Virus record (IMG/VR): IMGVR_UViG_3300027896_000023
Span: 20,166 to 84,165 of that record
Source of the DNA: a virus
Reading direction: 5' to 3' (one strand)
Length of the DNA: 64,000 bases
The notes below the pieces were generated by a model that saw only the letters and a program-made list of their open reading frames with translations, had not been told where the DNA came from and searched no databases. Position numbers and translations under genes: made by a program. How positions within the stretch are numbered: the stretch's first letter is position 1; each line of letters starts with the position of its first letter. Positions 3,045 to 63,905 of this stretch are shown piece after piece.

Positions 3045-3288
3045 TAAGCACAGTATCACGTAAAGAAGCGTTGAAAGCAATCTGCACTTTATGCAAGCCA
3101 CATGCTTGCAGTGTATGTTATGATCCGCTTGAAACTTCAGGCGTTACAATGGAACAGTTACAAAAATACTTCAATCCTTAATCTCCGTTTCTTTGGAGAC
3201 AAACCATGTTTAGCAGCGAAGGGTTACACAACGGCTGCACCTGTAGCTTCCACAATTGACAGGCCCATGGCGATGTAACCTATAAAAA

Positions 3289-3654
3289 TTGGAGGAAAAA
3301 TCTTTGCGAAAACCCGCAAACATAGAACTGCTCGAACACTTCAAGCTTGATGACCTTGGGTCTCAGTTTGAAATGGTCGAACGTAAATCTCCCGTGATAG
3401 AGAAAAGTAAAAGGAAAGTCGAATGGCACGCTGTTTTTCCAATGCATATTCCACAACAGGACTACATGGATAAAATGGCTTCAACAGCAATCGCTAAAGA
3501 CAACTGCATCAGACTCGAACCAGGACACACACATGTCTTAGACGTCGCAATATGCTTCAGATGCACTCCACAGGAATGCCTCAGCAACCATGCATGTGTT
3601 CGCAAGCAAGCGGTACACTCAACCCTTGCACACATGAACAGGGCTAAGTGGTAG
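3289..3654 (+). CDS. Hypothetical protein (start may be TTG 3304)
   Basis: ORF with GGAGG RBS, overlapping the AAA gene start. Confidence 0.6.
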   Translation: MEEKSLRKPANIELLEHFKLDDLGSQFEMVERKSPVIEKSKRKVEWHAVFPMHIPQQDYMDKMASTAIAKDNCIRLEPGHTHVLDVAICFRCTPQECLSNHACVRKQAVHSTLAHMNRAKW

Positions 3655-6116: not shown

Positions 6117-7373
6117 ATGCCAAGTAAAAGAGAAGTAGATATTCCCGATGCTTTAGACATCGCATTGCAAGGTATCAACTTTAGCAGTCCTACTGTAGAT
6201 ATAGATATTCCAACGCCATGCATTGAAGATGACAGGAAAATTCAAAGCTTCACGCAAAGCCTACCTGAACCTGAAGAAACTGAACTGCAACTGCTTATGT
6301 CCAGTAAACCCGTAGTGTTGCAGGGCTTCTTGTTCTCCATGCATTTCAGTGGAGATGACTTGCTGAAGCTACAGGTGAATAATCTGGATGACAGCCACTT
6401 CAACGAGATGAAAGATTGGCTTGAAGATACTATGCTGGAGATTGACAAGTCACATACCGAACGACATAACAGCGGTGCATCCAGCTGGGAAGGATCAGGT
6501 ACTCGTCTCAAAGACTTTGTTGATACAGGTGAAGCAGAGAATACGCCTGATAGATCACGCAGCATCAAGATCAGAATGTTTCCGCGTTCATTCAGCAACA
6601 GCTTAGCACGCATCAAAGAAGACTTAGTGTATGAACGACTCCGCAAATGCATCAGCATCACCACGTATAGCAGTGGCAGATTCAAACAGATGATCTTCGT
6701 CTTGCCCTTCAGCAAAGCAACTGAGATGGTAACAAAGATCGCTGAAGCCAACGTGAAAGTAGATGCAGTCAACGCAGAAATCAAAGAGTATGTGCAAAGC
6801 AAAGACTACACTAAGCTACATGAAATCCTAGAGAACTACAAACTTGAGAAGCTTGCAGACGAACGCAGCTGGAAGATACCTCACATCAGATATGAATTGC
6901 AACCCTTCAACCTAGACACCAAAGCAGTTATGGACATCATGAAAGTTGGAAACAAAAACGTCAAAGAAGAACTGAAAGAAAAGTACAACGCTGGCTTAAA
7001 AGAAATCGAGGCAACTCTCAACGAGAAAAACAAAACCATGAGTACACAAATCATGCAGGTATTCAAATCTGAAATCGACAAGCAAGTAGGGCAGATCGTA
7101 GCACGTGCAAAGATGGAGACTAAAACTGCAGCTGAAACTTCTGAGTCTCTGAAGCAGGAACTAGATGACCTCAAAGAGAAAGCAACATCGATTGGTATGG
7201 AAGCGTTAGCTGGCACAGTGATTGATCCCTTGACAGCACTTATAGATAATCCAAGTAAGGCAGCTGAACTCTTCGGTGTCTCTGTGATGAGTGACTTGCA
7301 ATATGAAGTAGACGATAGGATCGTAGCGTTCCTACGTACTCAAGCTACAGGTGTAGAAGATGCCAAGCTGTGA
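6117..7373 (+). CDS. Coiled-coil protein, possibly DUF3150-like
   Basis: 418-aa ORF with helical C-half; in the Ycf46/DUF1257/DUF2997 context. Confidence 0.55.
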   Translation: MPSKREVDIPDALDIALQGINFSSPTVDIDIPTPCIEDDRKIQSFTQSLPEPEETELQLLMSSKPVVLQGFLFSMHFSGDDLLKLQVNNLDDSHFNEMKDWLEDTMLEIDKSHTERHNSGASSWEGSGTRLKDFVDTGEAENTPDRSRSIKIRMFPRSFSNSLARIKEDLVYERLRKCISITTYSSGRFKQMIFVLPFSKATEMVTKIAEANVKVDAVNAEIKEYVQSKDYTKLHEILENYKLEKLADERSWKIPHIRYELQPFNLDTKAVMDIMKVGNKNVKEELKEKYNAGLKEIEATLNEKNKTMSTQIMQVFKSEIDKQVGQIVARAKMETKTAAETSESLKQELDDLKEKATSIGMEALAGTVIDPLTALIDNPSKAAELFGVSVMSDLQYEVDDRIVAFLRTQATGVEDAKL

Positions 7374-7623
7374 GTGCGGATGGGAAGGAACATGGTACGA
7401 GACAGAGAAGTCTTGTTGCCCAGTATGTAGCAAACCGTTAGGAGATAAGAAACATGAATCGTAAAGTGCAGATCACCCGCAAATATAATCTTGGCTGTAT
7501 CGGCAAGCAGTACGAGTCAGTTGAATTCTGCGTAAGTGGATGCAATACAGCTGAAGTAATTGCGGAAATTGAACACGCCTATGTAGATTACATAGCTTCA
7601 ATCACGTCAGGGGTGATACATTA

Positions 7624-7845
7624 ATGGCAACTAAACAACTGCCTAAGAAGTTTAGTGAGTGGACAGATGAACAACTCATCAACTACTACAAGGAATTGCA
7701 TAGCTGCATCAACATCTCAGAATGCTTCAGCACTTCAGACCTTATGAACTATGATAACATGGAGATTGAACTCATTAAACGAGGCTACGAAGTAAAAGAA
7801 ACCACGCATATAACAGTGCAGAAAAAGATTGAAGAGGAGGGATAG
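7624..7845 (+). CDS. Hypothetical protein
   Basis: ORF with GGTGA RBS. Confidence 0.65.
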   Translation: MATKQLPKKFSEWTDEQLINYYKELHSCINISECFSTSDLMNYDNMEIELIKRGYEVKETTHITVQKKIEEEG

Positions 7846-7846
7846 T

Positions 7847-8245
7847 ATGGCAAGATACTACATACGTCAAGTAAACGTTGCGTCTCAGACGGATCGCCTA
7901 GATGAAGACGGAAATCCACAGGTGTACAAAGTTTCTCAAGCGCAGGATGGACATTGGGAGTGCAGTTGTAAGGCATGGATATTCCAACGGGCACATCTAC
8001 TCGATGGACGACGAGCTGATGAATGGGAGACTCCAAATGGAGTATGTAAGCACGCTTGGTGGGTGATCCAGAACGAAGGACGCATGGCTACAGCTGTAGC
8101 TGCTGGTGGAACACACAGGATCGAATCAGAAGGACTCTTCGTGGACATAGCAGATGGACAGATCATTGGATTCCTTGCGCATCTTGGTGCGCCACCTCAA
8201 GTACCCACGGTTGCCCGTGATGTTTTCCATCCACGGCGCCGCTAA
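7847..8245 (+). CDS. SWIM zinc-finger protein
   Basis: Y.V......WECSCKAW...CKH motif; GGAGG RBS. Confidence 0.75.
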   Translation: MARYYIRQVNVASQTDRLDEDGNPQVYKVSQAQDGHWECSCKAWIFQRAHLLDGRRADEWETPNGVCKHAWWVIQNEGRMATAVAAGGTHRIESEGLFVDIADGQIIGFLAHLGAPPQVPTVARDVFHPRRR

Positions 8246-8404
8246 ATAAACGATCTACAGGTGAAGTTTCTATGGGAACAATAGACATCTTAGCTTTAGC
8301 TTCGGGCTTGATCCCGATGACTGCCTTGCAAGCTTGTGACAAGATGCAAAGCAGCGGCAAATGCGAGAACAATTGCCGTACATGTGCCATTATAATACAG
8401 TTAA

Positions 8405-8671
8405 GTGGACAAACTCTGCTTGGCAAAGGACAGAAAACACTTGAACCATGATGACGGGTGCTTTAACTGCGACAACTGTAGTGCATCTACACCTACAGCT
8501 TGGATGAAGGTAGAGAACAACCATAAACTCTGCCCCAAATGCGCTCAACATCTAGGTTGCCACTGTACTACACGTAGATGTGTACCTTACGAAGCTTGGC
8601 TCAACAGTAGTTCCTTATGTGGAGCATGCACTAGCGTTTGCATCTGGATAAAACTACAGGTGAAGCAGTAA
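8405..8671 (+). CDS. Cys-rich zinc-finger protein
   Basis: Multiple CxxC pairs. Confidence 0.5.
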   Translation: MDKLCLAKDRKHLNHDDGCFNCDNCSASTPTAWMKVENNHKLCPKCAQHLGCHCTTRRCVPYEAWLNSSSLCGACTSVCIWIKLQVKQ

Positions 8672-8823
8672 TGCCAACATTAACATGTGCTCGCTGCAAA
8701 GCCACAGAAGAATATGATGAGCCGAAAACTCTACAGGATTTGCCTGATGGTTTATGGATGAATGGTAAATGGTACTGTAGCAGATGCGCTAACAGAGTAG
8801 CCATTCAACATCCTCCCCACTAA
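8671..8823 (+). CDS. Small zinc-ribbon protein
   Basis: CARC...WYCSRC; TAATG overlap with upstream gene. Confidence 0.55.
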   Translation: MPTLTCARCKATEEYDEPKTLQDLPDGLWMNGKWYCSRCANRVAIQHPPH

Positions 8824-8876
8824 ACTACAGGTGAAGAAGATGAAGAAGACCAAGCGGATCAGAGGACACCTCTACA

Positions 8877-9080
8877 ATGATGGGACTCCAAGCGAAGTTG
8901 GACCCGATGGTGAACGTTACTATGGGTAAACTACAGGTACAGTTAGAAGGAAACTTTGAAGATATGAGTCGCATCTACGAATTCATGAAACTCCATACCA
9001 AATCTGCCTCGAAAGCAACGTGGCTAAGCAAACCAGATGACGCACTCGTCTCCGCCGTCTCCTTCTCCGTCACAATCTAA
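8877..9080 (+). CDS. Hypothetical protein
   Basis: ORF in a dense + strand gene run. Confidence 0.45.
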   Translation: MMGLQAKLDPMVNVTMGKLQVQLEGNFEDMSRIYEFMKLHTKSASKATWLSKPDDALVSAVSFSVTI

Positions 9081-9221
9081 ACTACAGGTGCAACCTCAAT
9101 GGAGAATCCCTTCTGGTTCTACGATGGCGGCGTCGGCATGTGCAAATGGATATGGTTCTGGGTGGAGATGGCTGGTATCCCAACCAGAGATTGTCCCCGT
9201 GACTACTAACTACAGGTGTAG

Positions 9222-9698
9222 ATGATGCCGAAGATAGATTCGCTGCAAGTTTTCATGCAAAACAATGGACTGCTGAAGCCCAAGCCCCCTCAACCTCCAC
9301 GTAAAAAACGTGAACCTACACCTGAACTTAGCTGGGAAGGCGGAAGCGAAGATGGAGACTCAGCGGAGTGGGAATGGGAAGACCTCATGACGAATCTTTC
9401 AGCTGTACTTAAGCAACTTCAGAAGCGCAACAACCATGAAGGCTACTGGAAAGCCAGCGTCACAGGCTTCGGATGGAGAAAGCAGGATGGAACGAAGGAC
9501 TTCAAAGCATATACAGCTGTAGAATTCCTCCGTACAATCCTGCCAGATACCGATTGCCACTTCGACATCTACGTAGACAAAGTAAAACATCAGCTTCGCA
9601 TCCACAACTTCCACCATGATGCACCAACAGGCGAATGGCACACGGTCAAGCCCATGACGTACCGTGAAGCAGACAAGTTCTACTCCACTGACAACTAA
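9222..9698 (+). CDS. Hypothetical protein (GFGWR / HHDAPTGE motifs)
   Basis: 158-aa ORF with typical codon usage. Confidence 0.7.
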   Translation: MMPKIDSLQVFMQNNGLLKPKPPQPPRKKREPTPELSWEGGSEDGDSAEWEWEDLMTNLSAVLKQLQKRNNHEGYWKASVTGFGWRKQDGTKDFKAYTAVEFLRTILPDTDCHFDIYVDKVKHQLRIHNFHHDAPTGEWHTVKPMTYREADKFYSTDN

Positions 9699-9857
9699 AA
9701 CAGGGGAGGGGTGAGTGAAAGTGAACAAACGAATTAAATGTCCAGCTTGCAAAGGCACAGGAAACGGCGCGTCTACAGATGTAGATTGCGATGAATGTAG
9801 AGGAAGCGGGTACATCTATATACCCGTGACCATAACACCATCAAGGATGTGAGTAAC

Positions 9858-9992
9858 ATGGTAACAGAAACAAGAAGAATAACAAACCGCAGAAACCAAG
9901 CAGTCATCAGAAAGAAACGCAAACAACTTGGCTTATGCCAACGATGCGGACAACCCCTACCAAAGAAACCTACAGGTGAAGCCACATCATAA
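9858..9992 (+). CDS. Small basic CxxC protein (not in ORF track)
   Basis: MVTETRR...RKQLGLCQRCGQPL; similar to the N-terminus of the convergent gene 9987-10283. Confidence 0.5.
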   Translation: MVTETRRITNRRNQAVIRKKRKQLGLCQRCGQPLPKKPTGEATS

Positions 9993-10283
9993 CCTACGTT
10001 GACTCCTACAATCTACACATCGCCCAAGCGAATCAAACTTTACAGCATCAGAAGATTTGCCACAGTACAGGCAACGCTTCAACACTACTACAGGTGAAAC
10101 CTGACTTGCTGTCGCCGCCACAGCAACTGCAGCAGCACGCCCCCGTCGAACAGGCGAAAGCTTCTTCTTTTCTACAGGTGCAGATGACTCGCCCAAAGAG
10201 TGCCCGCATTTTGTACAACAGTTCCTCGCTTTCCTTTCAGCGTACAAACGACGCATCAATTCAGCCTTAGTAAGCCTTACCAT
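9987..10283 (-). CDS. Basic zinc-finger putative DNA-binding protein
   Basis: Basic helix followed by CxxC and a second CxxC..CxxC; only minus-strand gene in this arm. Confidence 0.65.
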   Translation of the reverse strand: MVRLTKAELMRRLYAERKARNCCTKCGHSLGESSAPVEKKKLSPVRRGRAAAVAVAATASQVSPVVVLKRCLYCGKSSDAVKFDSLGRCVDCRSQRRL

Positions 10284-10372
10284 ACAGCATCAATTCAGCC
10301 TTAGTAAGCCTTACCATACAGCATCAATTCAGCCTTAGTAAGCCTTACCATACAACAGAGTAAGCCTTACCA
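10253..10372. repeat. Three perfect tandem 34-bp repeats plus a partial copy
   Basis: GCATCAATTCAGCCTTAGTAAGCCTTACCATACA at 10253, 10287 and 10321; partial AGTAAGCCTTACCA at 10359. Confidence 0.95.
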
Positions 10373-10419
10373 CAAGATAAGAGTAACGTTACCGCCAATA
10401 GTAACAGTTACTACACCTA

Positions 10420-10590
10420 TAGAAAGAACCAAACCCCCAACCAACCACCCACCCAAACATCAACGGCACTTTTTTGTATGTTGTTTTTGGTTGTGCGGAT
10501 TGTTTGTTTGTTGTTTGTTGTTGGAGTGGGTTGTTGATGGGCACGGCTGGTATATGTTGGGGTTCTCTGGGCATATTGTTCTTGTTGTTA
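10420..10590. other. Second A/C-rich to G/T-rich switch region, similar to 720-800
   Basis: AGAACCAAACCCCCAA..CCCAAACA followed by TTG-rich sequence. Confidence 0.45.
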
Positions 10591-10838
10591 CAGGTGTAGA
10601 TGTCATAGCATCATTTGGCACTGCTGAATTTGCTGGTGTCTATCATTCAAGAAAAAATGTTGAAGCATCAATGCGTACTCCGTTTCAAGCGGCATCACCA
10701 TGACAACATACATACTTTACGTTTGACAACACGTTTAAAAGACGGTTGCTCTTGTACAGTACAGGTGTAAGTGAGTGATATGCGGATGGATAGATGGGGT
10801 TGCAAGGGGAAGGAAGGAAAAGTTACAGGTGAAATTGT

Positions 10839-11024
10839 ATGGGTAAGTACGGTAGAAAACCTGAACAGGTAAAGCAAGACACGCATCCACGTCTCTGCCG
10901 AAAATGTGGAAAGCGAACCTACAGTTGGAGTTGTTGCGGTCAACAGACTGCACGAGTTAATGACAAAGCGTTTACCAAGAACAGGCTTAGCCAAAATCTC
11001 GGTGACAAAGCAGATTACAGGTGA
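10839..11024 (+). CDS. Small zinc-finger protein
   Basis: CRKC..CC; AGGTGA RBS. Confidence 0.55.
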   Translation: MGKYGRKPEQVKQDTHPRLCRKCGKRTYSWSCCGQQTARVNDKAFTKNRLSQNLGDKADYR

Positions 11025-11187
11025 AGAGGTGAAAATGAAATGAGTGAACCAAAGATTTACTGGCGAGACATCGGGGAACATGGTGCAATAACACAGCGCG
11101 ACGGATGCTACTACTGGGAGGCATGGCGAAGAAGCTACACCTGCACAACAATACCTGATGGGTGAAGCTAAAGTAAAGAATCGGTAA

Positions 11188-11213
11188 CCACGTGTGCCAT
11201 TTGGCAAACATGG
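11188..11213. promoter_or_regulatory. 26-bp palindromic site, copy 1 (parS-like)
   Basis: CCACGTGTGCCATTTGGCAAACATGG; near-identical copies at 34319 and 58411. Confidence 0.6.
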
Positions 11214-11220
11214 ATGCAAG

Positions 11221-11320
11221 CCATACTCCCGCCGAGTGTGGAAGAGTAACTCTCTTGTTCCGAAGGTTCGTCGGAAGACATTCACCGAACTGCAAAGCGG
11301 TCTGGTGACAAAGAGTTTAC
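11221..11320 (+). ncRNA. Candidate structured leader RNA upstream of the Ku-like gene
   Basis: Hairpin 11221-11241, then a multi-branch element closed by 11248-11258/11308-11317 with inner stems TTCCGA/TCGGAA and TCACC/GGTGA. Confidence 0.4.
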
Positions 11321-11344
11321 ATGAAAAATACAGGTGAAGAATGA

Positions 11345-12208
11345 ATGCGAATAGCATTAGCAGGATTTGAAGCCGACGTTTCCACTGAGTTAGTGAAGTC
11401 GGCTAAGCTGATTGATGAACCATTGATTGTTGAACTCATCAACGGCTACCAAGAAGTGTGTAAGTCATGCGTTTCTTGCGCTGGCTGCACGAAATATCCG
11501 TTCTGTTCCTCCATCGAGGTTAAGGAACGGAGTGTACCCTTGTATCCTACAGGTGAAACTTTTGTGGATGACGAGGGCGAAACCAAACCCGTCATGCGAC
11601 AGGGCGAACCCTACAAGCAAAGCATGAAAACCAAAGGCGTAGAAGATTGCAACGGCGTGTTTCGACAGGTGAAGAAAGGCGAGTACAAAGGATACGAAGT
11701 AGTAGCAGACCCATCTGACCCCACCAAGATACTGCTTGAAGAACGAGTCATGTTCGAGGAAGGCACAAAGATTCTTGACATCACTGAAGAAGACCTGTTC
11801 CCTGCAGGTGTAGAAACAAACTTCTTAATTGAGAAGCTCTACGAAATCTATCCGCACCATGACAAAAGCATCGAGAAGGATAACCGCAACAAACAGAAAC
11901 TCTACGAGATACATCAGCTACTCTCCGAGAAAAAGAAAGTAGCAATCAAGAATGGATTCGTGTGGCGTGGAGGCACGTATCAAGCGTGGGCTGCAATCAT
12001 TGAAGCTATGACTTTTGAAGATGGCAAATGGTTACTCACGTTGAAGACCACCCAAGCACAGCTTAGTTGGATTCATCCACAGGAAGTACCCGTTGTGTTG
12101 ACTGAACTACAGGTGAAGAAAGCGCCAACCGTGAACAACCTGACGGCGATTACAAGTTTCCTCAGCAAAGTAAAGGCTGAACAGAAGCCGCAACTGCAGG
12201 TGAAGTAA
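11345..12208 (+). CDS. Ku-like DNA end-binding protein with Cys-rich insertion
   Basis: Ordered Ku-like motifs: KGYE, TKILDI, EKLYEIYP, KLYEI..LL..KKKVAI, FVWR, LLTL. Confidence 0.6.
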   Translation: MRIALAGFEADVSTELVKSAKLIDEPLIVELINGYQEVCKSCVSCAGCTKYPFCSSIEVKERSVPLYPTGETFVDDEGETKPVMRQGEPYKQSMKTKGVEDCNGVFRQVKKGEYKGYEVVADPSDPTKILLEERVMFEEGTKILDITEEDLFPAGVETNFLIEKLYEIYPHHDKSIEKDNRNKQKLYEIHQLLSEKKKVAIKNGFVWRGGTYQAWAAIIEAMTFEDGKWLLTLKTTQAQLSWIHPQEVPVVLTELQVKKAPTVNNLTAITSFLSKVKAEQKPQLQVK

Positions 12209-12432
12209 GTTGGCTGACGACTTTCAGTTGATTGAACTGCGCAACCAACGACATGGATGAGGAAGAGTATGACCCCGAAGGAAAGAAAGTTAACTAGAGA
12301 ATTCGATGCCATCCTCAGAAATACAGCTGAAGATTTAGAGACAGGCGCAGAATCCATCAAGAATCTTCGGGATGCACATGGCAAATACTCTGTGGATATA
12401 CAGGAATCAAAACTTATGGAACGTGTTCAAAC

Positions 12433-12720
12433 ATGATGTATGAATCAGATGACTTCAAAGTTACACGCAACAAAGCTACACCTGAAAACCCCTTCAGCTT
12501 TACAACCAAAAGCAAATGCAAGAAGGGTTGGGTTTCAGCTAACTTCTTTTGGAAACCAAGCAACGTGACCATGCGAATCATCGGCGACAAGATACCATGC
12601 ATGGAGATAGCGTATCCATTCGTGAACCACAACGGCGGCGGAGTGCTGGCGGACATGGCACCGCAGGAACTCCTACGTACGCTGGTTAATCGACTGAACA
12701 TACAGGTGAAGAATCAATGA
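12433..12720 (+). CDS. Hypothetical protein
   Basis: ORF with overlapping start/stop codons. Confidence 0.6.
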   Translation: MMYESDDFKVTRNKATPENPFSFTTKSKCKKGWVSANFFWKPSNVTMRIIGDKIPCMEIAYPFVNHNGGGVLADMAPQELLRTLVNRLNIQVKNQ

Positions 12721-13133
12721 GTGAACAAGACGAATGTGAAGATTGCAACGGCACAGGCTACGAGAAACATGGTAGCGCAGATGAGAAGAAATGTACCACG
12801 TGTAAAGGCACAGGCAAAGTACCCCACACCTACACTGAAGAAGAGATAAACAAAATCATAAACTTCCATGGCGCCAACGGAAAACTCATCGACATCTTCT
12901 CCTTGCATGGCGTACTCTTTGTTGGCAATACTACACCTATAGTTACCTTAGAGAATGGACAAATCAAACACTGCAATGGATGGGACTTGAGTCACGAGGG
13001 ACAGTACACACGGTTCAGCACAGGCAACCTTGCAGTTTCCATAGATGACTTTTGGGATTGCCATACACCTGAAGAAGTACATGATACGTTCGGCGAACTG
13101 CTGGAAGAACGAGTCAAGGAGAATCTAGTATGA
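12717..13133 (+). CDS. Protein with DnaJ-type CxxCxGxG zinc finger
   Basis: CEDCNGTG...CTTCKGTG. Confidence 0.7.
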   Translation: MSEQDECEDCNGTGYEKHGSADEKKCTTCKGTGKVPHTYTEEEINKIINFHGANGKLIDIFSLHGVLFVGNTTPIVTLENGQIKHCNGWDLSHEGQYTRFSTGNLAVSIDDFWDCHTPEEVHDTFGELLEERVKENLV

Positions 13134-13318
13134 GTTGCCCTAATTGTGGAACTAAAGTAGTAGACGTCTTCGTCACCAGCAACTACACGTTAACCAAAGA
13201 TGGTGATGATTGGGTGCGAACAGACATCGAGAACCCAGTTGACGATTCAACCTACAGGTGTACCAAATGCCGTAAGGTGTTACCACCTGAACTGCTGGAA
13301 GAATTAGGAGTGACCTAA
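13130..13318 (+). CDS. Small zinc-ribbon protein
   Basis: CPNCG...CTKC. Confidence 0.65.
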   Translation: MSCPNCGTKVVDVFVTSNYTLTKDGDDWVRTDIENPVDDSTYRCTKCRKVLPPELLEELGVT

Positions 13319-13319
13319 G

Positions 13320-13520
13320 ATGAAAGAGTACACCGTGTACCTGAAAGAAATCATGGATGAAACCAGCGTGGATGCAGATGACGAGGCACAAGCGAAACGT
13401 ACAGCTGCAGATTTGTTTCTGGATTTTCACCCTGACCTGACCAGAGAATTTGTTGAGGCGCACATGGAGATAATCGAGACACGAGAACTGACAGCAGAGG
13501 AGGAGAAGGAAATTGGGTGA
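13320..13520 (+). CDS. Hypothetical acidic protein
   Basis: ORF; GGAGTGA RBS. Confidence 0.6.
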   Translation: MKEYTVYLKEIMDETSVDADDEAQAKRTAADLFLDFHPDLTREFVEAHMEIIETRELTAEEEKEIG

Positions 13521-14025
13521 CCATAGAACAAACGGTGAGAAACTTTACGATGAGTTCGACGGCTTGATTGACAGCGCCGAAGCGTATGGATTCCATGTGA
13601 TTGCAGAAAAGCTACGCAAGATTCGAGACCACACACCGAAGTATCCTACAGCTGTAGATGAAGGCATCAGTATGTTGAGGAAAGGAAAGAAGCCTCCTGC
13701 ATGGATAGAGAAGCTGGATGATGATGCATTGAAGGAGACACTTCAAGATTGTAAAGAAGCATTGAAGTCACAGAAGTGTGGGTGGGATACGCATACTGTT
13801 GAGGAACTGCAGCAGCTTGAGGCAGAAACTACAAGGCGCAAAGGCTTACGGTTCTTAGACCCAGCAGCCTACGACCAAGAACAGCTAAAGAAATACTTCG
13901 TGCAACCTACAGCTGCAGAGAATCCGAAGTGCCCCAACTGCAAGAACATCATGGTGATAGATACCACAGGTAAGTCACACTGCGAATACTGTGAGAAGGA
14001 GGCGAAGCAAGATGGCAGAACCTAA
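13513..14025 (+). CDS. Hypothetical protein with C-terminal zinc ribbon
   Basis: CPNC...CEYC. Confidence 0.65.
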   Translation: MGDHRTNGEKLYDEFDGLIDSAEAYGFHVIAEKLRKIRDHTPKYPTAVDEGISMLRKGKKPPAWIEKLDDDALKETLQDCKEALKSQKCGWDTHTVEELQQLEAETTRRKGLRFLDPAAYDQEQLKKYFVQPTAAENPKCPNCKNIMVIDTTGKSHCEYCEKEAKQDGRT

Positions 14026-14353
14026 ACAAAAATTTGTCATAAGAGTTCACTTCACCAACAACGATACCTACGCAGACTGGAGTACAATCTACATCAAAGG
14101 CAAGATACCTGACAAAGCATGGCTGAAGAGTTTGTACGATGGAGTGAATGAACCCAAAGACATGACGGTGCTGGGAACTATTCTTCCGCGACACCCGAAG
14201 ATTCCAGTTGTTAGTCTTGACAACATTGCAGGAACATACGACGACCCGTATGATGCAGCGAATTGTATACAAGACCTGTCTTCAGCTGAAGATAGAAAGC
14301 TAGGACAGTACACGAATGGACAAGGAGTCATTGTAGTTTACTACAAAGATTGA
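14012..14353 (+). CDS. Hypothetical protein
   Basis: AGGAGG RBS before ATG 14012. Confidence 0.65.
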   Translation: MAEPKQKFVIRVHFTNNDTYADWSTIYIKGKIPDKAWLKSLYDGVNEPKDMTVLGTILPRHPKIPVVSLDNIAGTYDDPYDAANCIQDLSSAEDRKLGQYTNGQGVIVVYYKD

Positions 14354-14363
14354 GGAATGAAAG

Positions 14364-14567
14364 TTGAGTAAGAAAAAGCAAGGACAAGTCATCGCCAATG
14401 GCGTACCTGTGTATGGCTTCGACGAATACAACGAGGCGGGTGCACGTATGGTAGCTGGCGGCGAGTTGAAAAAGATACTCCGTTTGAAGCGGAGTCTTGG
14501 AGAAATCCGAGTACAGTATCCATCGGGGCGAGAAGTCCTGATAAAAATATCAGAGGTAAACGAGTAA
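14364..14567 (+). CDS. Hypothetical protein
   Basis: ORF, translationally coupled to next gene. Confidence 0.55.
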   Translation: MSKKKQGQVIANGVPVYGFDEYNEAGARMVAGGELKKILRLKRSLGEIRVQYPSGREVLIKISEVNE

Positions 14568-16256: not shown

Positions 16257-16355
16257 TGCCGTACCTTGTGAAAGCTAAGATAACAGGAGAGAGACAAAAG
16301 GTGAAGCGTCTTCTGGAAGAAGTAGACTTGCTTGCCCAACAACTACACGTGAAGG

Positions 16356-17005: not shown

Positions 17006-17281
17006 ATGCTTTCAGAAAGCGCACAGTGGAACAGAAGAGTTTGAGAAATGCCAACTGTGTCTTTGGCAAGATTGCTGTGAAGCACATTACCAACTCACTT
17101 AGGCTCTCTTAAGTTGGTTTACGATTAAAGATGCATCAGTTGTTATCCGCTTCCGCATCGACGGCAAAGTGCACCAAGAAATTGTGGACTATCCAATGAT
17201 CGAAGTCTCTGCAGACATATCCGCATTGAAGACGTACCTGCACAAAGCAGTAGCAGACTTCAACAGCAGGGGGAACAAGCA

Positions 17282-19028: not shown

Positions 19029-19091
19029 AACCAAATACTTCACAAACCTTATTAATGGATTCAACCATTAGGAAAACGATGTGAAATAACA

Positions 19092-21053: not shown

Positions 21054-21060
21054 GATACAG

Positions 21061-50700: not shown

Positions 50701-52929
50701 TGCTTGGCCACCGTAGGCTTGCAGGTAGAAGCCTACTCCATATACTTTGAGGTTTGATGTTGGAGTAAATGGTTGTGCAGTAAAGGGATCGACAGCCCAG
50801 CCGCCTATATTATTAATTTTTGTACTGAAAACTGGAATGATTGCTGTGCCAGAGTAATGAGGCATAATGAAAGCGGTTGAAACACCATCAATACTATACT
50901 GTGGTGGCAACGTAAAGTCTGAAGACATGTCTGCAAAACGCCAGCGAACAAAGAAGCTGCTGGATAACTCTGGCTTATGTACGCCGTATACTGTTTCGCT
51001 GTCGCATCTAACGGTGAAATTGGATCCGCAGTTTTTGCTTGCATAACTAGGCAGTTCAAAGCTGGATGAAAGGTCTGTTGAACTTTCGCTTCTAACAGTG
51101 AAGCTGGATTGTATGTCTGTAGAAGATTGTTCTGGAAGGGAAACACTGCAGGATAAATCGTTGAGGCCGTCGAACCAATGCACATAAACACTGGTGCTTA
51201 AGTCAGCGGCACCATGTTCATGCACAAAGAAAGCGGTACTTAACTCAACTGATCCTGTTGGCACAATGAAGCATTCGCTTAAATCCGCTGATCCTGATTG
51301 TGATAGTTGCAGTTTTAAAAGAACACGGTTATCTACTGGGAGGTAAAGAAAACCGTCGCTGATTGTGATAGCTTCTGCACCATAGTATTCTGGAGGTAAT
51401 GCTATTGCGCCGCCGACTTCTTTTTGCAGCAAAGATGCCACGTCGACTAACTGTAGGTCAGCATGATCGTTGTACCAGTCGGAAAGGTATAATGTTCCAT
51501 TAGAAACTAGTAAACTACCGTAGTCATCCATGTTTACGGATTGAACTTCTATAACGGCTATTTCAGTGAATGCTGCTTTGTCAACTACACTGATGTAGTT
51601 TGGCTGAACCCAGTCGCCATTGGTTGAAAATATGTAGGTGTCATCTGCGCAGCCAGTCCAACATCGACGGATACGAACGTCTAAAGTTATTTGTTCATAA
51701 CTATCAAGTGACGCTGGAAGCTTCAGCAAAATAGTGTTATTTTCGTTATCAATAACGGTGGTGTAAATGTATCCATCGCTGTAAATTGTAAAGCCAGAGG
51801 AAGAAACAAATGATGAAAGATCTATGCCGCCAGTAACAGTGAAGGAAGCTAAATCAATTTTAGCGATACCGTCATTGAAACTCATGTATATTGAAGATCC
51901 ATCGAAGGCAGTGTCATTCACATACTCGTTTGTGCCAAGGTCTAAGCTGTCAACGTAAAAATCTGATAATCGCACTCTCATAAGAAAAGTGTTGTATGGT
52001 GAATTGTTATCTTCGTCATCATAATACATGTAGCCTCCAGCAAACCATATTCGAGCTGGGCTACGTCCCATACATAGTTGTTGCCATACTACAGAGAAAC
52101 TTGATTTCTCAACCAAACAAACTATCGGGCCATCATTTCCATATCCGCCAAGACCAATGTAATCTGCGTTTTGCCCAATAGCATACGCACTCATCGGAAC
52201 TGGAACTGAGTTAACGATGCTTGCTTGGACATAAAATGGATTATTTACATTAAATGAACTGGACAGGTCATCAGCTAAAGCACCGTAATCTCCATTGAAA
52301 GTTATAGTAATGGCATCGTAATGTCCCCACGGCATAGTTGTGCCTGAGTTTGCGTTACCTTTACTACTAACTATGTTATCCAGGTAGGCAAGACTCTTGT
52401 TTCCTTCTCGTGCACCATCAATCAATGTGAAACCATTTTGTGGATCTGTCTGTGCGCCTGACCCAATGTTTGTAGCAAAAATAATTCCCACCCATAACTC
52501 GTTATCCTGTGAAGTAAGGTCTATCCAAGGAGTAGTGGGGTTAGTTCCATTTCCGCCTCCTGTGCCATATTTGTCAAGATACCCTTTGTACGGTAATCCA
52601 GAGTATTCCCAGAGGTCTACTATACATGTACCAGTTGGATCACCTGACATGTTAATAGTAATCTCAGCATTAGCATCTGCGCCGACAGCGCCAACCCATA
52701 CTTCAAGAACGCCATCCCATTGATTGAAACCGGGTGGCATTTTTGTCCAGGTTACGCCTGTTTGAGAAATAGAAGCAACTGTTGGCGGAGGCGGAGTGTA
52801 AGTTACTTCGTCACCGCGCAGGGCAATAGCTGCAACAATGAGGTTCCATTCAGTAGGCGGATCGTCCAAGGTAACAGTAAGAGGATTAGATGATGATGTA
52901 CCTCGAGCGTTCTGGACTCGTGTAATCAT
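44740..52929 (-). CDS. Giant 2729-aa repeat protein with beta-propeller, two paralogous beta-rich modules, DUF2341-like domain and >100 14-aa repeats
   Basis: Long ORF; DUF2341-like DG.TPLSYWI..LWV.V..IYIYYG; Arg/Ser-rich repeats (count estimated). Confidence 0.85.
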   Translation of the reverse strand: MITRVQNARGTSSSNPLTVTLDDPPTEWNLIVAAIALRGDEVTYTPPPPTVASISQTGVTWTKMPPGFNQWDGVLEVWVGAVGADANAEITINMSGDPTGTCIVDLWEYSGLPYKGYLDKYGTGGGNGTNPTTPWIDLTSQDNELWVGIIFATNIGSGAQTDPQNGFTLIDGAREGNKSLAYLDNIVSSKGNANSGTTMPWGHYDAITITFNGDYGALADDLSSSFNVNNPFYVQASIVNSVPVPMSAYAIGQNADYIGLGGYGNDGPIVCLVEKSSFSVVWQQLCMGRSPARIWFAGGYMYYDDEDNNSPYNTFLMRVRLSDFYVDSLDLGTNEYVNDTAFDGSSIYMSFNDGIAKIDLASFTVTGGIDLSSFVSSSGFTIYSDGYIYTTVIDNENNTILLKLPASLDSYEQITLDVRIRRCWTGCADDTYIFSTNGDWVQPNYISVVDKAAFTEIAVIEVQSVNMDDYGSLLVSNGTLYLSDWYNDHADLQLVDVASLLQKEVGGAIALPPEYYGAEAITISDGFLYLPVDNRVLLKLQLSQSGSADLSECFIVPTGSVELSTAFFVHEHGAADLSTSVYVHWFDGLNDLSCSVSLPEQSSTDIQSSFTVRSESSTDLSSSFELPSYASKNCGSNFTVRCDSETVYGVHKPELSSSFFVRWRFADMSSDFTLPPQYSIDGVSTAFIMPHYSGTAIIPVFSTKINNIGGWAVDPFTAQPFTPTSNLKVYGVGFYLQAYGGQAGISNRKFSIRAADINHEPTGPDLASVIVAPYVSDSGQDIYVGYFASPYTLTAGVEYVAVDRYLSGKNLTHQICSLPEGTNTWSSSYDGGTWSQPGPTYDVSVTLFGIANPDLSSSFSACAVNDLPSNFTVGPHGAATLSCSFIVPGCSWSTIVPCAIYSQSKYISNSNTNPGWWLATIFNAPWTKQILGITFKIVNFSNSGQTVYVALQNAAAGRPTGADLAVSPAISAPNNNPDAITYYFNTPYTLLSGHSYGFSLRPSAGYMFFGMNTGGGMGVAASYDQGATWGGVFTGWDLLYDILGLGVRHPDLSSSFFIPITIANLASSFRIRKNASKNLSASVTLTIAIISKNISSSFAIRRSASKNVSSSFKIRKSNSKNISCKFIVTHQSNVNLSSSFHLSLGTAANLSASFTIKKSTAKDLSGSFTCRKTTVNDLSSSFELRESVAVNLRSNFSIRDYSSKTLRSSFTLRKASSKDLSCNVTVRLSSSKDLSCKFGVSRYANLSESFNLRILTVDLSSSMNLRILTKDLSEKFSVRNKSTKDLRCSFTVRTRSSKDLSSSWTIRKSSSSDLPALPYYQTHVIQHTTGAGANYQIKINLHSGVGASTTSDLYLNNHCINFPWDLYVTASDGVTPLSYWINDTANPKELWVNVVADLTSIDRTIYIYYGIPNFTSLSNGPATFLAFESFDSSLAGDAWPATLDTNDGTAVGSYYDVTVGVTPAETGGGRSGVGDLKALRPYVGQSSIYVAGVSELHYGSNFFNAQTIAVDFDYYLQTLGTPVGWWDIYAFVAFKYGSSYYLVRVKDQYQGGYQYRFNQFLTGAVFPQGPNSTTVLTGDALQTWYSKSINSITYAGANAISDVYVGVAGGSDSNTGYGSIEAYFDNLRVRKYVSPEPQNITWSAESGTGFPGTLTISGSFTIRKTTSKNLSSSFSIRRSASKTGTSEAFYVHLHSAADFSEAFYVHLHGNAFLSHAFLCRNRSSKNMPTSITIQGAGTGDVRCNFTIRNFADLSESFTVHNTPGKTNLSSKFVISKPGFRQLRSKFTLRKAGSKSGVSSSFSIRLPNTANAHGSVTIRTSRSKDCRSNIRIRNRGSRALSSSFSVIKNNLSSSCTVRKASSKRLSSSIYVNKQSFSRDLLGRFTVRSRSTADLSGSFTPKHISANCRSSFTVRSKNTSEVSSSVTLTRRTKNSLSSSFTVRSGSSAYNRGKFKIGHSAAADVSSKFTLRKATAADASANITVRQSTSRTSKCSFTVRSRSTRALSSNFYLKPQRNLSSNFTLRKSNSKTLRSSFYVRKLGFSDLSSKFIIKKRGSQALSSSVSPQRISANCRCSFTVRQASTKDMHGNFTLTRRSYKRLSSNFTVQNKATTTLRSSFRISNPFTVDLSSSFSLRKALSQDTSCSITLRHQTSKDCRSSFRVRSRSTRALSSNFYLKPQRNLSSNFTLRKSTAKDLRSSVYVRKLGSASVSCKFTIRSRGSLYLSSSITPKRLSTNCRCSVTVRNKGSAALSSSFYLKLQRDLSSSFTNRRSTSKDLRSSVYVRKLGQAEASGKFTVRKRSGVDLSCSVTPKRLSANCRCSFTVRQFSSKAISSSFTLTRRSYKRLSSNVTVRNKAAAACRSSFRIGHQSTVFVSSSFSIRSRVSAAVSSNFTVRSVAVKNSKCSFTIRGRSTRALSCSFYVPPQRNLSSSFQTRKVSSRRLSSSFYVRRIGAADVSAKLVIRKRSSRDCSGSFTPQRLHANYRCTFTVRNRSAKDLGSSFTIGYIAKANLRSSLTLRISGSVSLRSSFRITHSTSTEVSSSFTVRRPAAANLHSNVTIKKSGLKDFKCSFTVRHQIAKDLRSSFNLKKPTAVDLSSSFFVLVAPSLPSNVTIRKVSKKDLRSSVSLRKRTEADCSCSFIVYRPRVDLSCSFTIRRSSRQRLRSNFTVRGQNARNLSSSVCVVKSDNLRSNFSIGPGKFGYVHLATHSVVRTSFCVTTRAKVSTWLEENQ

Positions 52930-54856: not shown

Positions 54857-55296
54857 GTTTTTGCCTCTGGAGACTTCACGATTATTGCTGTTGCTTTCAT
54901 AATGTGTTCTACTGCTTGGCTGAGGGCTTGTTTGGCAATTAAAAGATTATTGATTACATCAATGTTTACTGTGGCGCCATCTAAGCTGATTTCCAAAAGA
55001 ACCGTGCACCCCGGTACAAGAACAGAATTATCCAGTTCCTCCAGTTTCATCACAACTTCCGCTATAAGCTGTTCCTTAACAGCAGAAGCCGGGCTGAAAA
55101 GTTCAGGATGCAGGGGTTTAAAATTGTCAGGCGGCGCTAAGAGTGACTCTTGGTTTCTACGGTATTTGTTACGTATGCAGTTTTCACAGTATTCGCCCCA
55201 TCGTTCTGTGTTAGCGAAAACGTTTGCACATTTAGCATAGTCGATGCAGCTGACTAATCCATGTTTAGACTGGATGGTGAATGGTTGGGCACTCAT
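54853..55296 (-). CDS. Hypothetical protein with Cys cluster
   Basis: ORF, coupled to neighbours. Confidence 0.6.
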   Translation of the reverse strand: MSAQPFTIQSKHGLVSCIDYAKCANVFANTERWGEYCENCIRNKYRRNQESLLAPPDNFKPLHPELFSPASAVKEQLIAEVVMKLEELDNSVLVPGCTVLLEISLDGATVNIDVINNLLIAKQALSQAVEHIMKATAIIVKSPEAKT

Positions 55297-55568
55297 AGTT
55301 TTTTCTCCGCTTTACGCATCTTCTCATCCAGCTTTTTCTGTTCTTCATCAAGCCATCTCTTGTAGGCTTCACGGTTCAAACTGTACTCTACGTGTTTGTA
55401 ATCAATCTGTTCCCGGTCCACAAGCCCTTCATTCTGCAATAGATGAAGTTCCTGGCTGAAGTGACTCTTGCTTGGTCTACCAGTCTCGTTGTAGAGATCA
55501 GTAAACCGCAGGTTCACTGGTGAATCCAGAAGCGCTTTGATTACTTTTTCACGTAGAGACTCAGACAC
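55293..55568 (-). CDS. Winged-helix (HxlR/ArsR-like) regulator
   Basis: LRFTDL...SKSHFSQEL..LQNEGLVDR...VEYSL. Confidence 0.8.
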   Translation of the reverse strand: MSESLREKVIKALLDSPVNLRFTDLYNETGRPSKSHFSQELHLLQNEGLVDREQIDYKHVEYSLNREAYKRWLDEEQKKLDEKMRKAEKKL

Positions 55569-61521: not shown

Positions 61522-61794
61522 ATGACAACCGTGACAAGAACCCAAGTTCTCAAAGTGATACCGCACTTAACAAAGAACGATCGTGAATTTCATACACCTG
61601 AACTGGCAGAAGCATTAACAATTGAACTCGGCGCAGAAATCAAGTCTGACACAGCCCGGTACTGGGCTAACCAGCTTTGTTTACCGCCAGACGCAGTATT
61701 GGCACGCAGACCAATCAGTGCACGACTTTTTGTTTATAGTCTCCCAAAATCCAAGAACTTATCGGCTTCAGTAACTCTTCGAAAGAAGAATTAA
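61522..61794 (+). CDS. Winged-helix protein ending in one copy of the giant-protein repeat
   Basis: F.TPELAEAL...TARYW..L...R.FVY; C-terminal SKNLSASVTLRKKN. Confidence 0.7.
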   Translation: MTTVTRTQVLKVIPHLTKNDREFHTPELAEALTIELGAEIKSDTARYWANQLCLPPDAVLARRPISARLFVYSLPKSKNLSASVTLRKKN

Positions 61795-63905
61795 GGCGAA
61801 ACATAAAGGCACTGTATACCAGTGTAGTGACTGCCTTGTGCCCCAAATTGATTTGTGTTGGAAATTCTTGTAGGCACACCTGTTCCCTGATAAGCATACA
61901 CGTATGTACCAGTAGTGTAGTTCTCGTGGTATCGATAGCCTGTGCCAAAATAAAGAGTGTTGCCTGCTATAGCCATAGAAATAATTGCTTCAACATTTGA
62001 CGTAATTGTTACAAATGAAGATCCGTCGTATGATAGGAGTTTTCCCAAAGAAGGTGCTTCGGAGTTCCCTTGTGTTGCGCCGAGGTATAGTTTATTGTTT
62101 AGAACACCCAATGTGTATATCCAGTAAACATCGGTATTAGTTACAACTGAATCAAAATTTATTCCGTTTGTTGAATATCGAAGCTTTTGGTAACATGCGG
62201 CGTAAAGTTTGTTATTGTATACTTTGAGGTCATTAACACCGTAACTACTATTGTAGGTTCCGTCATATACCCATCCTTCATTGACGGATCTTCCGAATCT
62301 TTCACGGCTATAGTCAGCAAGATTTATCCAATTAGGAAACAGCGTACTTGTTGAGACAGCCCCGATTACGCCTAAAAATGATGACGCGGTAAATACAGGT
62401 GTCCATGTGGTTCCGCCGTCCAAACGCCACAGAGTTTTGCTTCTTGCAGCGTACAGTTTATCCTGGTATATTACGAAGGCATGTGTTTGATTTTCGTCAT
62501 TAGTAAGCATAGTCCATGTAAAATCGTTGTTGTATCTATAAGTGCCATAAGCGCCGCCAGCATACAAAACACCATGATACTGCACTATAGCAAAGATAGC
62601 GCCTGATGGTTCAATGCCTTCTGCAGGCCCTAATCTTTGCCAAGAAGTCCCATTGTTGTATCTCCAGACGTTGCCAGGTATAGAAGTGCCAGCGTACAAT
62701 ACCGGGGCAACTGGATTTATTATTACAGGATCGCCAACATAAACCACTGGTGCTTGAGAATTAATAGCTATACCACTTTTAGGCGGATAAGCACGGACAT
62801 TTAATCTTTGGGTTCCCACGGTTACGTGTTTTGACGTGTCAACATTAGAAAGGGCTACTGGTTTGTTTGGGTCGCCGTTTATGTAAGCTACTAAAAGGTT
62901 GTCTCCAGGTGTTGCGCCTAAACCTTCGACGCAGGGTACATTAGTTAGTCTCTGGCGTGGAGTAGTTACTGTAGCTTTGTTGGTTGTGCTGAGGCGTCCG
63001 GCAAACATTGGGGCATTAGCGTTACCGTTTTGGTGAACGAGAACCACTTGGTCACCTTCATTTAAAACTACACCTGTAGTCAATGGGTAATCTATGTAGG
63101 TAGGAGACTCAGATGTTCCTCCTTTGTAAACTCGTACAGCAACTCTTTGGTATGGTTGAGATGGCTTTTCAATGTGGAAGCTGCTGGGAAGGTTCTTGAG
63201 GCTTTGTTTGCCCCGAAAGAAACTTGAGTGTAAATCAACAGACCTTCTGTTTCGGACAGTGAATTTCTCAGATAGACGTGCTGAGAGTGAGGTACTGCGG
63301 AAGAAGACTTGTGGGTTTGGGCATTGTTCAAAGTAGTAAAAAAGTCCATCGCATGGAACTGCGTAGACTACTCCCGAACCAGTGTTATATGTTGTTTTAA
63401 GCGCAAGATTGTATCCGGCGCCAGTTCCCAGAAGTTGATAGCCTGAACCGGAAAAGCCTGTGCCATCCCAGGCTGTGGTGAGACTAGAGAATTCCGTCCA
63501 GAAAGGATCGCCACTCATGCCTGATGCAGGAACCATTGTGGCTACTCCGCTGATTTGTCCTGTCCACCTGAAGTTGAAAGCTGAGGTGAAGTCAAGTCCG
63601 TGTGGTGCTGGGTTGCCGTAATCGGTGTCGCCGCCGACGATCAGCATGTTGCCATGTTGAACCCAGCTGACTATACTGGATATTTCAGCTGAGGATAAAA
63701 CATGATGCTGCAGTCCACTTACTACAAAAATATTGTATGGCGCTAACAAGGCATCGTTTATGATCGGGTACTGCCCGCCATAAGCGCCGCCGTAAGTGGT
63801 GTTGATGCCTAACGCATTCATTCTTGTAACTACATTGTAAGGCGGTCGAAATGGTGCAGTATCAGATTGATAAATGCCTATGTATAATACCTTACCTGCA
63901 ACCAT
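61791..63905 (-). CDS. 704-aa putative virion protein: GATase-like/DUF4350-like N-domain, 3 repeat units, C-terminal beta-propeller
   Basis: LS.AEI..I.SWVQ.G..LIV.GD; repeats LSEKFTVR/LHSSFF/LPSSFHI; Y.G.LYA blades. Confidence 0.75.
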   Translation of the reverse strand: MVAGKVLYIGIYQSDTAPFRPPYNVVTRMNALGINTTYGGAYGGQYPIINDALLAPYNIFVVSGLQHHVLSSAEISSIVSWVQHGNMLIVGGDTDYGNPAPHGLDFTSAFNFRWTGQISGVATMVPASGMSGDPFWTEFSSLTTAWDGTGFSGSGYQLLGTGAGYNLALKTTYNTGSGVVYAVPCDGLFYYFEQCPNPQVFFRSTSLSARLSEKFTVRNRRSVDLHSSFFRGKQSLKNLPSSFHIEKPSQPYQRVAVRVYKGGTSESPTYIDYPLTTGVVLNEGDQVVLVHQNGNANAPMFAGRLSTTNKATVTTPRQRLTNVPCVEGLGATPGDNLLVAYINGDPNKPVALSNVDTSKHVTVGTQRLNVRAYPPKSGIAINSQAPVVYVGDPVIINPVAPVLYAGTSIPGNVWRYNNGTSWQRLGPAEGIEPSGAIFAIVQYHGVLYAGGAYGTYRYNNDFTWTMLTNDENQTHAFVIYQDKLYAARSKTLWRLDGGTTWTPVFTASSFLGVIGAVSTSTLFPNWINLADYSRERFGRSVNEGWVYDGTYNSSYGVNDLKVYNNKLYAACYQKLRYSTNGINFDSVVTNTDVYWIYTLGVLNNKLYLGATQGNSEAPSLGKLLSYDGSSFVTITSNVEAIISMAIAGNTLYFGTGYRYHENYTTGTYVYAYQGTGVPTRISNTNQFGAQGSHYTGIQCLYVSP

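Follow-up and report, generated by a model that had tools for sequence, protein, structure and literature searches.

A dense 16-bp dyad motif repeated through the genome of an archaeal tailed virus and written into its proteins

The DNA analysed here, called the window below, is a stretch of 64,000 nucleotides covering bases 20166-84165 of a single virus record of 84,165 bp (IMG/VR IMGVR_UViG_3300027896_000023; the whole record is referred to as G000). Between window positions 3235..63079 a short quasi-palindromic motif recurs in both orientations, and this motif is the subject of the present work. Two forms of it were counted: the 12-mer CTNCASSTGNAG, with 55 exact copies in the span, and its 10-base core TNCASSTGNA, with 109. 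The span itself is not assigned to a strand, and the corresponding expectations from shuffled sequence are 0.32 and 5.64. Positions are those of the window unless stated otherwise.

G000 is an archaeal tailed virus of about 84 kb. Its first 20 kb encode the major capsid protein, a prohead protease, the portal and the large and small terminase subunits. Genes were called with a simple in-house caller, which gave 132 genes covering 88.6% of the record. Those in the window comprise about 58 small genes of an early region (6370..31465), most of them on the + strand, and furthermore a Cdc48-like AAA ATPase, an ATP-dependent DNA ligase, glycosyltransferases, S-adenosylmethionine (SAM) methylases and two giant serine-rich repeat proteins. 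A tblastn search with the capsid protein matched nine phage records, eight of which are Haloarcula tailed viruses (29-30% identity, 98% of the length) and the ninth a virus assigned to Methanofastidiosa (25.7% identity). In a large protein collection 938 capsid relatives were found at E <= 1e-10. Many of these are around 48-50% identical, come from marine surveys and lie on contigs of 90-110 kb; we take them to be magrovirus-like, a label of our own and not the output of a tool. Closer capsid relatives (77-82% identity) exist on contigs of 14.7-92 kb. Recoding of stop codons was considered and rejected, as open reading frame lengths under read-through of TAG, TGA or TAA gave no sign of an alternative code. 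No tRNA genes were found in the window.

The 12-mer occurs 63 times and the core 122 times in the whole record. In 100 dinucleotide-preserving shuffles of the window, the mean count of 0.32 for the 12-mer had a standard deviation of 0.60 and a maximum of 3. An earlier note, made from the window sequence alone, had described a pervasive 12-bp quasi-palindrome and taken it for a genome-wide self mark; the counts bear out the description, and the enrichment belongs to the DNA of the genome at large. It had listed 28 positions, 25 of which are exact 12-mers, while the remaining three (6369, 26721 and 49418) are cores with the last base off. The note had also proposed a codon-preserving shuffle, and the enrichment persists in it. 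With synonymous codons shuffled within each gene and the protein kept, the called genes are expected to contain 2.45 +/- 1.53 copies of the 12-mer (maximum 7 in 300 shuffles) compared with 53 observed, and 13.7 +/- 3.7 copies of the core (maximum 25 in 200 shuffles) compared with 103 observed. Shuffling the order of the codons gave an expectation of 0.47 for the same 53 copies. Therefore, the count cannot be put down to the use of codons or of amino acids, and the position of ribosome-binding sites (RBS) is insufficient as well. The most over-represented 8-mer of G000 is TACAGGTG, found 64 times where 2.3 are expected.

Copies of the 12-mer with one mismatch number 82 (9.7 expected), and the outermost C/G is a soft position, as 53 of the 82 differ solely there. 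Perfect sites are maintained, judging by the 63 exact sites against 29 one-off variants at inner positions, for which the shuffle expectations are 0.3 and about 10, respectively. When all cores were aligned, the information extended symmetrically to an A at position -3 (60%) and a T at position +12 (55%), with essentially none beyond, and the exact match between any two sites never exceeded 20 bases. It follows that the unit is a 16-bp dyad and not a fragment of a longer repeat or of a mobile element. The dyad has the form A-n-C-T-N-C-A-S-S-T-G-N-A-G-n-T, with the base preferences A-n-C-T-[A>G,T]-C-A-[G>C][G/C]-T-G-n-A-G-n-T. At the free position N an A is preferred, followed by T or G, and C is rare (CTA 100, CTT 45, CTG 44 and CTC 9 of 490 half-sites).

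Counted per 6 kb along the record, the cores number 3, 5, 4, 2, 15, 25, 20, 9, 9, 8, 8, 6, 4 and 4. The fewest, 2-5 per 6 kb, are in the capsid and packaging module. The early region has the highest density (15, 25 and 20), with 72 sites at a mean spacing of 342 bp, that is about one site per 0.34 kb compared with about one per 0.7 kb overall. Genes bearing at least one site number 40 of 58, compared with 34.8 at random (P ~0.05), and 23 of 36, compared with 18.6 (P ~0.04). The beginning of the window (1-3235), which includes a gene-free stretch of 0.8 kb, holds not even one copy of the 10-mer core, where some 4-5 would be expected at the genome-wide density.

The 122 cores of the record divide into 96 within genes, 12 at ribosome-binding positions and 14 in other intergenic places. 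One reading frame dominates: 68 of the 96 intragenic cores outside ribosome-binding positions are read as xxT NCA SST GNA, giving x-[T/A/S]-[G/A/P]-[E/V/A]. In this permissive frame the fixed bases of the dyad all occupy wobble positions or others that tolerate change. The coding-strand centres found in it are CC 21, GG 22, GC 24 and CG 1. Since CC and GG are about equally frequent, the two orientations are used equally, in agreement with the occurrence in both orientations noted before; the CG centre may be rare because of arginine and CpG. The 8-mer TACAGGTG, counted in G000 only, is found 46 times in sense and 18 times in antisense. This excess is due to a TAG stop codon in one frame of the antisense form, a TGA stop codon in another frame of the sense form, and the 12 sense copies at ribosome-binding positions. 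The + strand skew of the motif tracks gene direction and ribosome-binding use.

Two further IMG/VR records have a capsid protein 75% identical to that of G000, one of 84,303 bp (G001) and one of 23 kb (G002). G001 contains 29 copies of the 12-mer, compared with 2 of the backwards control, and 76 cores, the density of which also peaks in the early region (15 and 18 per 6 kb); in G002 the numbers for the 12-mer and the control are 4 and 0. More distant capsid relatives (46-52% identity; 78 loci, 921,819 bases) have 8 copies and 3 control matches. As the enrichment is found in G001 and G002 but not in the distant relatives, the motif is private to a narrow clade. Five of the marine loci (L150, L161, L181, L196 and L222) carry 8-mers containing CCCGG or CCGGG in 5-7 copies within about 15-21 kb, where 0.1-0.25 are expected; these are possibly coding artefacts.

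G000 and G001 are themselves far apart. Only 5,319 bases of G000 could be aligned to G001, at 67-78% identity, and 44 of the 132 G000 proteins have a match there; G001 is estimated to be 78% complete, and a gene apparently missing from it could lie in the absent part. Among the sites that can be aligned, 1 of 10 in G000 is shared with G001, and 2 of 8 in the reverse direction. G001 and G002, which are 85-99% identical in DNA over their shared stretch, have 7 of the 9 G002 cores in common (compared by hand), roughly the number expected to survive neutral decay. What the lineage keeps is the density of sites, not their positions.

The effect of the motif is visible in the proteins. Recurrent peptides attributed to it in the earlier note are present (LQVK four times, PTGE three times and several xTAV), and the proteome holds about five times more motif-compatible peptides than the codon-order shuffle gives (2.45 compared with 0.47). 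One case is a serine-rich repeat protein of 1532 amino acids (37223..41821, - strand), the gene of which contains seven exact 12-mers. Thirty of its repeat units match F[TS]x[RS][KRQS], with 13 FTIRK, 3 FTVRK and 5 FTCRK. All five FTCRK units are encoded as TTCACCTG(T/C)AGAAAA, and the full 12-mer is present in four of the five, so the conversion of FTIRK/FTVRK to FTCRK reported from the first reading holds. These codons lie on the - strand at 37961..37975 (TTCACCTGTAGAAAA, within a 14-residue repeat), 38549-38563, 38717-38731, 39560-39574 and 40358-40372. The second giant, a repeat protein of 2729 amino acids with a DUF2341 match (44740..52929, - strand), has three exact 12-mers in its gene and one FTCRK unit. 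Both giants are built of 14-residue serine-rich units (…SSSFT[I/V/L]RK…DLS), and their counterparts in G001 are shorter.

Genes with an orthologue in G001 contain 27 of the G000 sites, and 17 of these 27 fall in gapped or unaligned stretches of the protein alignment. The insertions holding a motif are 3-14 residues long and are found in the portal, in a metallo-beta-lactamase-fold protein and in others. In the large terminase subunit (TerL), the peptide SAGVG is kept in G001 but encoded by other codons. The motif thus alters the virus's own proteins at a measurable cost, and some DNA-level process shapes both the genome and the proteins.

The explanation we favour, held tentatively and a little short of probable, is that a dimeric, sequence-specific DNA-binding protein binds the motif, the many copies of which would form an array of its sites. 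A 16-bp dyad, neutrality of orientation and maintained perfect copies all fit a dimer, and the dyad form also fits the protein-binding site suggested in the earlier note. Information that ends at -3/+12, together with the lack of any pair of sites sharing more than 20 bases, likewise fits a dimer operator and argues against a mobile element. An array of so many sites would mark, coat or globally regulate the viral DNA. Coding constraint would decide where the sites can stand, namely in the one permissive frame of small residues, in linkers and in lineage-specific insertions. Phages in which one regulator has dozens of dispersed sites, and phages with RBS-linked repeats having flanks that do not pair with rRNA, may serve as published precedents by analogy, as far as the sections of the papers cited here describe them (PMC9283540, PMC3203893).

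The predicted binder could be encoded by the host or by the virus, in which case two small winged-helix proteins shared with G001 would be candidate readers. One is an HxlR-like protein of 91 amino acids (55293..55568, - strand; E 3.7e-4, 20.7 bits at a cut-off of 20.8), which is 36.8% identical to its G001 counterpart over 87 residues. The other is a TrmB-like protein of 131 amino acids (18811-19206 of the whole record; E 0.015). Both are to be taken as putative leads. Searches of PDB sequences with the 526-, 418- and 287-aa proteins of the virus as single sequences gave nothing useful, and the Atlas was uninformative for the 418-aa protein.

We also consider a more far-reaching form of this proposal, which is possible, if doubtful. 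The motif would then be a 16-bp 'self word' private to the virus. A dimeric protein of viral origin would read it and thereby coat, compact or globally switch the DNA; selection would insert linkers, choose codons and replace conserved residues to keep it, and there would be no host counterpart. Should this be true, the virus would possess a private, genome-wide recognition code. A reader protein, if it exists, would offer an easy way into the question of how the DNA of an archaeal virus is marked or organised by the virus itself. Furthermore, the motif would be a cheap metagenome signature for members of the clade and perhaps for the host.

Several observations weigh against an array of protein-binding sites. 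The proportion of intragenic cores (79%) is unlike that of known operator arrays. The spacing of the sites in G000 is only weakly more even than random (coefficient of variation 0.77; random 5% bound 0.82), that in G001 shows no evenness beyond random (0.97), and no helical phasing was seen. The winged-helix matches are weak and do not pin down a reader. Some error in the frame and RBS counts is to be expected from the simple gene caller. Finally, a purely mutational or recombinational drive would equally give maintained perfect sites together with turnover of positions, and the present data do not separate selection from drive. If such a drive should be the cause, the virus would be a clear-cut natural example of proteins being rewritten by pressure at the DNA level.

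One form of drive is recombination. Site-specific or microhomology-mediated exchange would occur preferentially at the dyad, reshuffle the early genes and leave insertions in the larger ones. The density of sites peaks in the gene-variable early region, sites are often found at gene junctions, only a third of the proteins are matched in G001 and, as described above, most sites in shared genes are within insertions or unaligned stretches. Parallels have been published for crenarchaeal viruses: the portion of the paper cited here reports 12-bp insertions and deletions within open reading frames of rudiviruses and lipothrixviruses, and recombination sites along the HAV1 genome (PMC4390879). Nevertheless we consider recombination unlikely. 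The motif-holding insertions vary in length and show no fixed 12 bp, no recombinase was found with Pfam, and in the G001/G002 pair none of 8 indel or replacement breakpoints was within 100 bp of a core, although the stretch compared is the site-poor structural module.

The same low probability is given to a host factor as the reader. The virus would accumulate sites that recruit or titrate a replication initiator or transcription factor of its host. A shared factor would explain why the same motif is found in two viruses with so few genes in common. There is also a loose likeness to the archaeal origin recognition boxes (ORBs) and mini-ORBs, short dyads with T-N-C-A half-sites such as TTACAGTGGAAAT; among the entries in Table 2 of PMC4153887 are half-sites TTACA, TTGCA and CTGCA followed by G/C-TGGAA. 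According to the same part of that source, ORBs have an odd centre (TTCCA-S-TGGAA) and other outer bases and are clustered at origins next to orc1/cdc6, whereas the present dyad is even-centred and dispersed. No family match to Orc1/Cdc6 was found in G000.

No sampled archaeal genome was enriched in the motif, a result with which a factor having few chromosomal sites is still compatible. The sampling covered about 960 archaeal genomes (401, 401 and 151 from three phyla, and 10 single genomes), as samples only and with DPANN, Asgard and other phyla left out. Five whole archaeal genomes had 2-31 sites per 2-3.8 Mb, compared with 3-6 for the controls. The word CTACAGGTGAAG, present 14 times in G000, reached no more than 5 copies per genome among 401 genomes of the phylum to which a locus titled Candidatus Nitrosopolaris (G005) belongs, and no more than 3 among 401 of the phylum to which a locus titled Thermoplasmatales archaeon (G408) belongs; it was absent from 5 further archaeal genomes. 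For TACAGGTGAAG, with 19 copies in G000, the maximum was 9 per genome among the 151 sampled from the phylum of a Methanosarcina-titled locus (G003). The comparison with candidate hosts proposed in the earlier note thus showed no comparable density in the sampled genomes. A capsid-protein scan of genome contigs revealed no provirus. Scanning with the AAA ATPase led to generic archaeal Cdc48-type loci, of which 80 from mixed phyla had at most 2 sites each and none was enriched, and an alignment scan of viral contigs with it returned generic Walker motifs only, from unrelated viruses.

Less probable still is a mutational drive through modification-linked repair, in which a methylase and a Vsr-like nuclease would convert near-sites to sites. 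The first reading had placed methyltransferases and a Vsr-like nuclease at 31279..35061 (- strand) and considered repair by them as the cause of the motif. The methylase genes are real and the nuclease candidate is a DUF559 protein, encoded side by side with them. All on the - strand, they are a DNA methyltransferase of 148 amino acids matched in PHROG (31279-31725), a SAM methylase of the small-molecule type (32317-32919), an N6/N4 methylase fused to ParB, the CcrM-like matches of which are far below the cut-off (33511-34722), and the DUF559 protein (34723-35061). None of these genes has a homologue in G001 at E <= 1e-5. Since G001, as far as it is complete, lacks them and yet is enriched in the motif, repair by this cluster is unsupported as its origin. 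G001 does encode a Dcm-like C5 methylase (L009:2559-3512), which has no counterpart in G000 and is unrelated to the 148-aa protein (E 0.025).

No methylase common to both viruses was found, and neither virus has the pair of a C5 methylase and a Vsr-type nuclease: G000 has an N6/N4-type methylase and DUF559, with no C5 methylase found, and G001 has a C5 methylase but no DUF559 homologue. A methylase of the N6/N4 type does not give rise to the T:G mismatch on which a Vsr enzyme acts. Repair by such an enzyme would remove precisely the C-to-T variant, which is not depleted but is the commonest of the inner one-off variants (8 of 29, at the inner C). Furthermore, a 16-bp dyad is longer than the usual methylase sites. 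In favour of the repair drive, the highly iterated palindrome HIP1 of cyanobacteria has been linked in print to methylation of its inner CGATCG, in the passage cited here (PMC6604393). Other genes of G001 without a counterpart in G000 encode a PAPS-reductase-domain protein (L008:4468-4887), a SPASM-domain protein (L008:1637-2374) and a collagen-repeat protein (L008:9291-10124).

Twelve cores are situated 1-12 nt ahead of an ATG with AGGTG in sense orientation, in the form [C/A/T]TACAGGTG[A/T/G]A[G/A]. As seen in the upstream sequences, CTACAGGTGAAG stands at 8256..8265 (+ strand), 6 nt ahead of the ATG of the gene 8272-8451. A second copy of CTACAGGTGAAG at 20345..20354 (+ strand), 6 nt ahead of the ATG at 20361, doubles as the last codons of the upstream gene, and several RBS copies supply last codons in this way. 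The further sites begin at 9211, 11329, 12701, 15109, 20541, 20822, 21056 and 26722 on the + strand and at 32129 and 53698 on the - strand. Other genes of G000 use GGAGG-type sites. The core includes AGGTGA, a sequence complementary to the 3' end usual in archaeal 16S rRNA, and the copies just ahead of start codons would for this reason also serve as Shine-Dalgarno elements.

On this basis the motif could be a translation signal only, an extended ribosome-binding or start-associated sequence with the other copies as by-products. The flanks TAC and AAG are conserved at the RBS copies although they are not complementary to the usual archaeal 16S rRNA end and would not be expected to pair with it. 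The start-associated sequences (SAS) of Cluster K mycobacteriophages behave likewise, according to the portion of PMC3203893 used here. As the sole explanation, however, a translation signal is refuted by the counts of placement and orientation, and we consider the idea very improbable. Only 12 of 122 cores are at ribosome-binding positions, in the permissive frame the antisense orientation is as frequent as the sense orientation, and centres of the CAGCTG type, without a Shine-Dalgarno core, are enriched equally. About a tenth of the copies would thus double as Shine-Dalgarno elements, and the RBS position leaves the remaining copies unexplained.

The remaining candidate, a HerA/FtsK-superfamily ATPase of 526 amino acids with a coiled coil and a C-terminal winged helix (22677..24257, + strand), was judged to be an unlikely reader. 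Its HerA match is seen both by profile (4d2i, E 9.2e-6) and in the Atlas model (TM 0.52-0.57), the winged helix is a TrmB match (E 5.9e-4), and the protein is shared with G001, C-terminal block included. It has about 700 relatives, mostly viral, in which wide conservation is limited to the first ~350 residues. That the motif is a guide or loading site for this ATPase, read by its winged helix as FtsK reads KOPS (the FtsK-orienting polar sequences), is the least probable of the proposals, since the motif is absent from 30 of 31 homologue-bearing viral loci, the exception being G001 itself, since three of them (L234-L236) encode an ATPase 55-56% identical to that of G001 over the full length and yet have 0, 1 and 1 cores in about 12 kb each, and since the dyad has no polarity where coding allows. 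On this co-occurrence the ATPase was rejected as the reader. An ATPase scan of metagenome contigs found nothing.

Other ATPase-bearing viruses show over-represented palindromes of their own, which are weaker, and none is comparable in density. The HIP1 word GCGATCGC is found 14 times on both strands of L226, where 1.8 are expected, and L240 has seven dispersed CAGGWCCTG dyads in 15 kb and L254 two. Two unrelated ATPase-bearing viral contigs contain tandem arrays (L243:1-500 and L245:330-1640), with a 12-bp unit repeated about 41 times and with 6/18-bp units.

Two observations concern the window apart from the motif. A stand-alone open reading frame of 76 amino acids (19874-20104, + strand) matches ATP-dependent DNA ligases in their C-terminal (OB) region. 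It shares 59% identity with the C-terminus of the G001 ligase and lies 0.85 kb downstream of the complete ligase gene of G000. At 10252-10321 a contig of a metagenome run skips 68 bases, with 34 bases fitting each side, which looks like a repeat-mediated length variant. This run, labelled as freshwater, is the only one found to contain the DNA, and no RNA run was listed as containing it. No sequence variants at motif sites were found in the run, of which contigs only were searched and which is possibly the record's own source.

No account of such a motif in archaeal viruses turned up in the literature searches, and matches to the letters of the motif were primers only. A paper on magroviruses (PMC5434244) makes no mention of palindromes, repeats, motifs, promoters or Shine.

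HIP1 is a short palindromic word that is hugely over-represented, largely within genes and beyond codon use, and is not known to have a settled function. Over-representation in genes beyond codon use is likewise found in G000, as described above. HIP1 differs in being an exact 8-mer of host chromosomes with a link to a cognate methylase, whereas the present motif is a degenerate dyad of 10-16 bp in a narrow virus lineage, is enriched in none of the sampled archaeal genomes and has no methylase shared by G000 and G001.

SAS (GGGATAGGAGCCC) is a 13-bp repeat holding a Shine-Dalgarno core and found a few bases ahead of start codons. It is flanked by conserved bases that cannot pair with 16S rRNA, occurs only in the non-structural half of the phage genome and is missing from the genome of the host; its function is given as unknown in the text cited (PMC3203893). 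The 12 RBS copies of G000 behave like it. Unlike the mostly intragenic cores of G000, which are used in both orientations, SAS is, in the same text, asymmetric, of a single orientation and almost always at gene starts.

Of the working models known for a viral array with many sites, the nearest is provided by the stoperators of Cluster A phages, where one phage protein, the L5 repressor, binds more than 20 dispersed 13-mers across its own genome and silences it, as the excerpt used here reports (PMC9283540). The arrays of G000 and G001 have 122 and 76 cores. Stoperators are described there as asymmetric sites for a monomer that lie in short spaces between genes and follow the direction of transcription, whereas the sites of G000 are dyads, mostly intragenic, five times more numerous and neutral in orientation. 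The motif thus fails defining features of HIP1, SAS and stoperators.

KOPS, DNA uptake sequences and Chi are over-represented 8-12-mers of chromosomes that are read by DNA-processing machines, and KOPS and Chi are polar. The likeness to KOPS and FtsK lies in the HerA/FtsK-like ATPase with its winged helix; G000 shows no orientation bias in the permissive frame, and the motif does not co-occur with the translocase lineage.

Cells are known to have words iterated across the genome, among them HIP1, uptake sequences, Chi and KOPS, and the arrays of phages hold tens of regulator sites. The array of G000 is distinct from these in being very dense, mostly intragenic and dyad-symmetric, in being private to a small clade of uncultured archaeal viruses, and in overriding preferences at the protein level.

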